This document shows positions 32,970 through 33,746 of a DNA stretch of 64,000 bases, in pieces. The position numbers were made by a program, and so were the translations under genes. How positions within the stretch are numbered: the stretch's first letter is position 1; each line of letters starts with the position of its first letter. The notes beneath the pieces were generated by a model. The model had not been told where the DNA came from. It did not search any database and was given only the letters and a program-made list of their open reading frames with translations. The DNA lies in NCBI GenBank assembly GCA_900539265.1, contig UQBM01000008.1:4095-68094 (forward strand), written 5' to 3'. Source of the stretch: an uncultured Mollicutes bacterium. Its GTDB lineage: Bacteria; Bacillota_I; Bacilli_A; ML615J-28; CAG-313.

Positions 32970-33746
32970 ATGAATTTTAATAACGCTTTTGGTTTTCCTC
33001 AAAGACCAAATAATAATTGTGGATGTCGTCAAATACCTAACAGCAATTGTAATTGTAATTTCTGCAATCAACATAGAGGCGCAACTGGACCTACAGGTCC
33101 CACTGGTCCTATGGGTCCAATAGGACCTAGAGGTTTTAGAGGTCCTACTGGTGCTACTGGCCCTACTGGTCCATCAGGAGGTGCTACAGGTCCTACTGGT
33201 GCTACTGGCCCTACTGGTGTTACTGGCCCTACTGGTCCTACTGGCCCTACTGGTGCTACTGGTCCTACTGGTGCTACTGGTCCTACTGGTGTTACTGGCC
33301 CTACTGGTCCTACTGGTGCTACTGGCCCTACTGGCGCTACTGGTCCTACTGGTGCTGATGCAACAACCCCTATTTTAACAATTGGTACAGTAACTACCGG
33401 CGCTCCAGGTTCATCAGCCTCTGCTACTATAACTGGAATTTCACCTAATTTTGTTTTAAATTTAACTATCCCTGCTGGCCCTACTGGTCCTACTGGTCCT
33501 ACTGGTCCTACTGGTCCTACTGGTGCTACTGGCCCTACTGGTGCTGATGGTACTGATGGTACAGATGGTGCCGATGGTGCTACTGGTCCTACTGGCCCTA
33601 CAGGTCCTACTGGTCCTACTGGCCCTACTGGTGCTGATGGTACTGATGGTACAGATGGTGCCGATGGTGCTACTGGTCCTACTGGCCCTACAGGTCCTAC
33701 AGGTCCTACTGGTCCTACTGGCCCTACTGGTCCTACAGGTCCATAA
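32970..33746 (+). CDS. collagen-like triple-helix repeat protein (BclA-like GPT/GAT repeats) with a Cys-rich N-terminus
   Basis: The RBS AAAGGAG sits inside the 3' end of the glycosyltransferase gene, so the start is the second ATG at 32970. The N-terminus is [35 protein letters not shown]. Collagen segment 1 contains about 30 GXY triplets (GPT/GAT/GVT). It is interrupted by a 40-aa non-collagen stretch ([41 protein letters not shown]). Collagen segment 2 contains GPT plus [15 protein letters not shown]. The ORF ends in GPTGP with no C-terminal globular domain. Confidence 0.85.
33178..33360 (+). repeat. imperfect tandem 63-72-nt repeats within collagen segment 1
   Basis: The protein-level unit [21 protein letters not shown](GPT) is repeated about 2.5 times. 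Confidence 0.6.
33531..33710 (+). repeat. near-perfect 90-nt tandem direct repeat x2 within collagen segment 2
   Basis: ggccctactggtgctgatggtactgatggtacagatggtgccgatggtgctactggtcctactggccctacaggtcctac... occurs at 33531 and again at 33621, encoding [30 protein letters not shown]. Confidence 0.85.

Follow-up and report, generated by a model that had tools for sequence, protein, structure and literature searches.

In the window analyzed here (64,000 nt, positions 4,095 to 68,094 of contig UQBM01000008.1, assembled from an uncultured Mollicutes bacterium), a forward-strand open reading frame (ORF) at 32970-33746 encodes a collagen-like protein of 258 amino acids (aa) and directly follows a gene for a glycosyltransferase (GT). 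We conclude that the collagen-like gene belongs with those for the BclA/BclA3 proteins known from spore surfaces, of which it encodes a headless variant. Further, we propose, with a probability of roughly 60%, that both genes form an sgtA-like and bclA-like operon specifying a glycosylated collagen-like filament on the spore surface, i.e., a “nap” of the exosporium or outer layer. The collagen-like protein is most likely made late in spore formation.

The upstream gene links the locus to a known system. Its product contains the Pfam domain Glycos_transf_2 at aa 5-125 (E = 1.7e-22), followed by TPR units at aa 263-357 (TPR_2/ANAPC3 at aa 263-339), and matches PHROG 13126, a beta-1,4-glycosyltransferase family, at E = 8e-48. 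Against the SunS family (TIGR04195), it reaches 74 bits at a cut-off of 350 bits; S-glycosylation of the N-terminal Cys by a SunS-like enzyme was considered but is improbable, as the score is far under the cut-off and no glycocin-like gene was found nearby. Since only 11 nt separate the GT stop codon from the ATG of the collagen-like gene and no terminator is located between them, the two genes are probably co-transcribed. A spacing of 11-12 nt recurs in two related loci (L085 and L086). Relatives of the GT are encoded in at least 593 candidate stretches of a collection holding one genome per species, and 7,951 proteins match the GT at E ≤ 1e-20; one homolog, 55% identical, is from Romboutsia. 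When the best 80 of the at least 593 loci were analyzed (GT identity 45–81%), a collagen-like gene was found immediately adjacent on the same strand in 53 (downstream in 41, upstream in 31). Each of the 41 downstream genes starts with a short N-terminus containing 2-9 Cys, which abuts the first Gly-X-Y triplet. The original prediction for this gene, made from the sequence alone, had called the protein atypical. This was overstated, as the combination of a Cys-rich N-terminus, GXT collagen, and an adjacent GT2+TPR enzyme represents a widespread clostridial cassette.

A counterpart of this arrangement is SgtA/BclA3 (CD3350/CD3349) of Clostridioides difficile. SgtA has 358 aa with a GT-A domain at 1-260 and TPR at 262-358; its gene directly precedes bclA3, and the enzyme attaches β-O-GlcNAc to Thr residues of the BclA3 collagen repeats (PMC7157674). 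In the window, a GT-A+TPR enzyme of exactly this length is likewise encoded directly upstream of a Thr-rich collagen-like gene in the same orientation. Further, the collagen-like protein resembles BclA3 in lacking a signal peptide, in its σK-type promoter and in its hypervariable collagen region. On the other hand, the conserved globular C-terminal domain of BclA3, which is predicted to drive homotrimerization (PMC13188886), is missing, and an internal β-module of 37 aa is present instead. The Cys-rich N-terminal domain is of the type found in clostridial GT-linked homologs. The host is Acholeplasmatales-like, whereas C. difficile belongs to the Peptostreptococcaceae. SgtA of C. difficile was found neither among the 120 best protein matches of the GT nor among the best 80 loci.

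Upstream of the GT gene, a σK-type promoter-like element was detected (Table 1). The pattern AC-N16-CATANNNTA occurs only once on both strands of the 64 kb, namely at this element. In four loci with GT identities of 66–100%, AC-N16-CATATTATA and approximately 20 nt downstream of it are invariant, whereas the non-coding DNA around them is divergent. Of 76 homologous cassettes, 13 have a strict σK motif no more than 200 nt upstream of their first gene, compared to 0.59 expected (P about 3e-14). Mother-cell promoters of C. difficile have the -10 sequence CATATTAT or CATATAAT, with a -35 AC for σK, and both bclA1-3 and CD3350 are σK-dependent; CD3350 is a family-2 glycosyltransferase gene adjoining bclA3 (CD3349) and is taken here to be sgtA (PMC3789822). 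In the relative L086 (GT 66% identical; N-terminus of the collagen-like protein MNFNNWGCPQRFNNNNC...), the cassette lies back-to-back, i.e., divergently, with spoVAC-spoVAD-spoVAEB-gerA (L086 1638-4839), and the intergenic region shared by both units retains the CATATTATATAAAGAACCTGAT element. Late expression in the mother cell would explain why the protein has no signal peptide.

The collagen-like ORF was confirmed. Its ATG at 32970 is preceded by AGGAG at a distance of 5 nt and orthologs begin with MNFNN; an alternative ATG at 32955 would overlap the GT gene. PF01391 (Collagen, E = 2.3e-26) is the sole Pfam family matched by the product. The earlier statement that a signal peptide is absent holds, as there is no hydrophobic N-terminal stretch (the highest Kyte-Doolittle value of any 11-residue window within the first 30 positions is -0.15). 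Neither an LPXTG motif, a transmembrane segment nor a wall-binding domain was found in the 258 aa, nor was an exosporium leader motif of the B. cereus type. Also in agreement with the prediction, the N-terminus is Cys-rich: all five Cys of the protein (positions 17, 19, 27, 29, and 32) fall within its first 36 residues. The pattern MNFNN..G.PQR..NNNC.. of this domain is kept in the orthologs L004, L085, and L086, and the domain is identical in every allele of the species, while the collagen region is hypervariable. The proposed role of the Cys in chain registration or cross-linking is plausible, considering the Cys found beside the first triplet in all 41 genes downstream of a GT.

Collagen triplets cover aa 37-72 and 74-130 (12 + 19 triplets) and, after a non-collagen stretch at aa 131-169, aa 170-256 (29 triplets), followed by a final GP. 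Of the 60 triplets, 45 have Thr in the Y position. The interruption of the helix into two blocks had been recognized, but it had been missed that block 1 is itself split after 12 triplets by a single Gly at aa 73 (33186-33188; GPS-G-GAT). The extra Gly is also carried by L004 and L085, and many GT-linked homologs have a break of one residue at a similar place. The acidic tract reported for block 2 (15 residues) is indeed present, and it occurs twice, within a 90-bp tandem repeat of 2.6 copies with 95% identity. The ORF ends with (GPT)n-GP and the tandem stops TAA TGA. A terminator had been placed right after the gene; hairpins do exist, but these are two AT-rich structures starting 14 and 80 nt past the stop. 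The fold of this region has a z-score of -6.9, and none of 200 shuffled sequences folds as well, although a terminator scan with a G+C-based consensus detected neither hairpin. The hairpin at 33825-33867 is probably a bidirectional intrinsic terminator between the collagen-like gene and the convergent queA. Besides the collagen-like ORF, the repeat region contains an antisense ORF of 235 aa with PVG repeats (33068-33775, minus strand), which is a mirror artifact of the collagen repeat and no gene, and ORFs with L/V repeats in frames +1/+2 (33151-33378 and 33523-33753), which are artifacts as well.

The lack of a C-terminal globular domain, as originally described, is genuine. The region is 100% identical over 1.3–1.5 kb in two separate metagenome assemblies. 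Further contigs, chosen by an identical upstream GT or an identical RuvB, revealed alleles of 204, 255, 258, and 339 aa in the same species, with block 2 ranging from 35 to about 170 aa. More than 10 independent assemblies have the N-terminus, the insert, the end ...GPTGPTGP with TAA TGA and the 3′ flank in common, and the spacer to queA comprises the same 337 nt in all of them. The suggested inspection of the downstream frames for a BclA-C fold was carried out: Many stop codons close all three frames between the end of the gene and queA at 34083, and neither the Pfam scan nor these frames contain BclA_C (PF18573) or another globular C-terminal domain. As the terminus and the 3′ flank agree among assemblies and the downstream frames are closed, a hidden head domain is ruled out. 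An assembly artifact, in which a collapsed or chimeric repeat masks a longer gene with a C-terminal domain, is thus hardly credible, even though five scaffolds contain gaps of 100 N inside block 2, several contigs end within the gene, and the contiguous alleles of 204–258 aa could be collapsed versions. Consequently, the concern about a repeat collapse is justified for the number of repeats only. This number is best read as either truly polymorphic or not resolved by short reads, and the value in the window as a lower bound or one allele. Short-read contigs or metagenome-assembled genomes (MAGs) ending inside genes of this type were also seen in L004, L085, L086, L010, L019, L043, L091-L095, L102, and L103, and N-gaps in L087, L088, L090, L098, and L099. 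Because collagen-like genes break short-read assemblies, MAG annotations systematically lack them or contain them in truncated form, and repeat numbers in MAGs are unreliable.

The original prediction did not recognize any non-collagen element of the trimerization type. However, what it listed as a Thr/Ser/Ile-rich insert is a conserved module of 37 aa rather than a linker. A hidden Markov model (HMM) built from few copies recognizes the query at E = 6.6e-19 and is matched in 73 of the 120 best homologs, with 1-3 copies each. Of 80 module-bearing proteins (the 73 homologs, the query and six locus-derived proteins), 35 carry their last copy at the C-terminus, 20 have it as a neck that leads directly into a non-collagen C-terminal domain, and in 25 further collagen comes after it. 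The consensus is ATITVGTVTTGxPGTxAxVTNSGTxxNAVLNFTIPxG, with two sub-types, one of them reading ...VTNSGT...VLDFxIPRG. When 1.84 billion cluster representatives (50% identity) were searched with the profile, 13,788 hits were obtained at E ≤ 1e-3, 5,284 of them at E ≤ 1e-10, and single proteins contained as many as 25 tandem copies; carriers include phage tail fibers, and the module alone matches PHROG 6614 (minor tail protein) at E = 7.5e-9. No match to the module was found in Pfam, NCBIfam and PDB sequences, whether a single sequence, the profile or multi-copy proteins were used, and no occurrence of the string IGTVTTG was found in the literature searched. Matches to FN3/monobody and Ig λ (E 0.015–0.3) were rejected, as they reflect β-strand patterns only.

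For the module, AlphaFold2 (AF2), run as a monomer on an alignment of 49 sequences, predicts a three-stranded β-meander with a predicted local distance difference test (pLDDT) score of 95–96. Searching predicted structures (BFVD) yielded phage collagen-repeat and tail-fiber proteins of 40–60% identity. Owing to the odd number of strands, entry and exit of the chain lie at opposite ends, as would suit an element placed in line within a fiber. Fully hydrophobic alignment columns alternate with polar ones (Thr/Asn/Asp), and thus one face of the module must be buried. A different C-terminal end was observed in the head-less, GT-linked L049 and L065 and in P0267, which has a Cys-rich N-terminus and six tandem modules: all three end in a helical-looking tail of approximately 35 aa (…DDIVEDFNALLANLRDAGLLER, …EVTKKINELITNLTSAGFLK), which may be another small C-terminal trimerization element.

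Members without a C-terminal domain recur in the family (P0001, P0030, L032, L049, L065, L067, and L074); L032 ends 5 aa past its repeats and L074 ends in a module. Comparable to the query are small clostridial Cys-rich collagen-like proteins of 170–210 aa (P0001, P0017, P0030, and P0005), which have an N-terminus with CC or CCC, short collagen runs, one or two modules, and no BclA_C. Most of them end right after the module (…LNLTIPQGPTGPAA), whereas the query has approximately 88 collagen residues beyond it; P0001 and P0030, like the query, end in collagen repeats.

In Bacillus, BclA forms a glycosylated spore nap and is polymorphic in repeat number. The collagen-like protein shares GPT-rich collagen with BclA of Bacillus anthracis/cereus (PDB 1WCK), and 1wck_A is matched at E = 6.8e-10 over the repeats. 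In contrast to BclA, it has no exosporium leader and no TNF/C1q-like BclA_C, but a Cys-rich N-terminus. Matches to B. cereus proteins named “exosporium leader peptide-containing protein” dominate the full-length search, but they align through the repeats only and are, therefore, uninformative on orthology. Hydroxyproline-free bacterial triple-helix repeats are also found in Scl1/Scl2 and in Legionella Lcl, whose NCBIfam models score 64–107 bits, over the repeats only and far below their cut-offs of 325–500 bits; for Scl1/Scl2, the scores are 65–107 bits at cut-offs of 325–400 bits. Unlike Scl1/Scl2, the collagen-like protein is devoid of a signal peptide, of an N-terminal V domain and of LPXTG.

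Taken as a spore-surface filament, the two-gene unit might work as follows. Late in sporulation, RNA polymerase containing σK would transcribe both genes in the mother cell from AC-N16-CATATTATA; here, the motif and its conservation are observed, while its use by σK is deduced. The product would be made in the mother-cell cytoplasm surrounding the forespore and would not need a signal peptide, which fits the absence of export and anchor signals. By analogy to SgtA, the GT2+TPR enzyme would O-glycosylate Thr of the approximately 45 Gly-X-Thr triplets, thereby decorating and, as expected, stabilizing the Pro/Thr-rich, hydroxyproline-free helix. Bann et al. (2000, “Sweet is stable”) are said to have found that triple-helix formation by (Gly-Pro-Thr)10 requires glycosylation of its Thr; if so, the partner GT may be needed for stability as well as for decoration. 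Three chains would be registered by the Cys cluster and the β-module in place of the usual C1q/TNF-like head. The Cys cluster at the first triplet could form an interchain disulfide knot, a cross-link to Cys-rich proteins of the basal layer, or both, and the three amphipathic strands of the module could pack as a trimeric β-prism, nucleating the helix on both sides. The N-terminal domain, considering its conservation across species, would anchor the fiber, probably via disulfide bonds with Cys-rich proteins of the basal layer. The acidic block 2 with its GxD tracts, which varies between alleles, would project outward, and the repeat variation might set fiber length and the antigenic surface as in BclA.

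Several results speak against this scheme or parts of it. In approximately 80 kb (the window and about 16 kb of flanks), no sporulation-specific genes were seen, and it is this absence that weakens the spore model most; spore formation of the uncultured host lineage is itself only predicted. The promoter can also be read as a σ70-like sequence, ATGACA-17-TATTAT, which overlaps the σK element and fits σ70 at 10 of 12 positions, and the putative assignment to σK depends on a short consensus. Orthology to SgtA is deduced from the architecture, the length and the position of the GT and from its linkage across the family, and the specificity for sugar and acceptor is assumed by analogy. In addition, disulfide knots could only form late, given that the cytoplasm of the mother cell is reducing. 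As for the module, the buried face would most simply be accounted for by a trimeric β-prism, but the AF2 run modeled a monomer, and Foldseek found no solved structural analog. Further, the first 203 aa of the collagen-like protein of L085, a close relative with a GT of 91% identity, contain no module, and the module may thus not be essential.

Some of these points would suit a vegetative surface or extracellular collagen-like fiber unrelated to spores, an adhesin or a sheath, which is exported non-classically and glycosylated by the GT. Both the absence of sporulation genes from the approximately 80 kb and the fit to σ70 are as this explanation would have it, and so is the fact that classical Acholeplasma and Anaeroplasma do not form spores. 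Nevertheless, we consider it unlikely: the protein has none of the export, membrane or wall-attachment signals searched for, the conserved -10 CATATTATA with its -35 AC is of the mother-cell type, and the cassette is spread across spore-forming Clostridia and adjoins spoVA/gerA in L086. The gene could also be a decaying remnant, i.e., a BclA3-type gene which lost its head by truncation in a lineage losing sporulation and has little or no function left. Alleles of 204–339 aa, however, keep the frame open in every contiguous case despite large in-frame repeat changes, and each is closed by the same pair of stop codons, with strong terminators behind them. Moreover, the N-terminal domain, the module, and the promoter are conserved across species, the intact GT protein is found unchanged on 416 contigs and indexed in 736 blocks of the collection, and headless members occur independently in other lineages. 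Decay is, hence, quite improbable, although most GT-linked homologs bear a C-terminal domain of 130–185 aa, some C. difficile clades frequently have truncated bclA alleles (PMC13188886), and the host clade shows reductive evolution of sporulation.

A phage origin deserves mention due to the many similarities to tail proteins. Phage collagen-like tail fibers and minor tail proteins (PHROG 6320, 5073, 819, and 6614) have repeats interspersed with the same module, and prophage collagen-like proteins of Escherichia coli O157 are an example from the phage side (PMC3368898). A fiber architecture assembled from small trimeric non-collagen elements would be common to both, with the trimer in our case being conjectural. 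That the gene is a phage-derived or domesticated tail-fiber fragment could be argued from PHROG tail-fiber matches with E down to 6e-47, the hit of the module alone to minor tail families and the BFVD matches. Yet, the gene is chromosomal, syntenic, and GT-linked, no phage genes are found next to it, and related species have the same arrangement between the glycogen operon and queA-ruvBA. Instead of an N-terminus for baseplate attachment as in phage fibers, it has one of the clostridial GT-linked type, and a receptor-binding C-terminus is missing. Accordingly, we regard this origin as very improbable.

To classify the host, marker proteins were compared. The 90%-identity clusters of RpoB, SecA, L1, FtsK, and Ffh are named “Acholeplasmatales bacterium”, “Staphylococcus sp. 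CAG:324” and “Bacilli bacterium” (one complete contig of 1.89 Mb), and RpoB of the window is 89% identical to that of a MAG labeled Anaeroplasma bactoclasticum. Judged from these sequences, the host is an uncultured Acholeplasmatales/Anaeroplasmataceae-like lineage of the human gut with a G+C content of 28%; an affiliation to Erysipelotrichia, at which the original prediction had guessed, finds no support in the named close relatives. Classical members of the lineage, Acholeplasma and Anaeroplasma, are non-sporulating and the clade shows reductive evolution of sporulation, but sporulation genes, spo0A among them, are present in most genomes of Anaeroplasmataceae, and some members may form spores (PMC10868615).

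If the spore-surface proposal is true, the operon with its mother-cell-type promoter would provide independent evidence for a possible persistence of sporulation in an abundant, uncultured Acholeplasmatales-like gut bacterium, which would bear on its transmission and on the debate over a repeated loss of sporulation in Mollicutes-related Bacilli. A spore nap would contrast with the cultured relatives of this lineage, which are wall-less, non-sporulating Mollicutes. The protein would also represent a natural collagen triple helix which folds without a globular nucleation domain by means of a Cys cluster, a module and Thr glycosylation, and which could be useful for the design of recombinant bacterial collagens. 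The module, found in approximately 14,000 protein clusters including phage tail fibers and absent from Pfam, NCBIfam, and PDB sequences, deserves a family definition and a structure. Both this uncatalogued module and the implication for sporulation are more interesting than the headless protein itself. In a more far-reaching and clearly tentative reading, both are combined: The module would be a minimal trimerization and registration node which, together with a Cys knot, allows collagen helices of bacteria and phages to fold in the absence of a globular head, the protein here being a head-less collagen stabilized by Thr glycosylation, and, at the same time, the σK-driven sgtA-bclA operon would mean that “Staphylococcus sp. 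CAG:324” still builds spores with a glycosylated collagen nap. We consider this conjunction possible, but rather doubtful.

Table 1. Features of the GT-collagen locus (positions in the window).
Feature	Position	Strand	Basis or remark
σK-type promoter-like element: -35 AC (31816-31817), 16-nt spacer, -10 CATATTATA (31834-31842)	31816..31842	+	40 nt 5′ of GT start codon
SgtA-like GT, 358 aa, GT-A/GT2 (DTGSTD, LDADD motifs) with C-terminal TPR	31882..32958	+	Pfam, PHROG
Shine-Dalgarno AGGAG of collagen-like gene	32960..32964	+	sequence
N-terminal domain, aa 1-36, 5 Cys, putative anchoring/cross-linking	32970..33077	+	conserved in orthologs, identical across alleles of the species
Collagen block 1, aa 37-130, 12 + 19 triplets	33078..33359	+	length differs by 7 triplets between strains
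β-module of 37 aa, aa 134-170, after linker ATT (aa 131-133)	33369..33479	+	HMM, PHROG, AF2
Collagen block 2, aa 170-258, 29 triplets + GP, two acidic tracts	33477..33743	+	90-bp tandem repeat 33485-33721, hypervariable
Tandem stops TAA TGA	33744..33749	+	terminus identical in all assemblies
First AT-rich hairpin, 20-nt arms, 95% complementary	33759..33800	+	starts 14 nt past stop
Second hairpin, perfect 21-nt arms, A-tract/T-tract flanks	33825..33867	.	starts 80 nt past stop

The GT-collagen pair is flanked by a gene for a Zn-ribbon membrane protein together with the glycogen operon (glgB/C/D) and, at its other end, by queA-ruvB-ruvA, an order that related species retain. The small membrane protein with its C-terminal zinc ribbon (30959-31504, plus strand), encoded upstream of the operon, is syntenic in relatives and has 48% identity in L004. 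The rest of the window contains housekeeping genes (rpoB, nusG, cysS, metG, pfk, ffh, ftsY, topA, ftsK, prfB, secA, and leuS). For three ORFs on the minus strand, 19470-21461, 48848-49672, and 63153-63983 (662, 273, and 275 aa), Pfam yielded nothing at E ≤ 1e-3. Also on the minus strand, a σH-like sigma factor with Sigma70_r2 only (E = 2e-8) is encoded at 10808-11341, in the classical position cysS-…-sigH-rpmG-secE-nusG.

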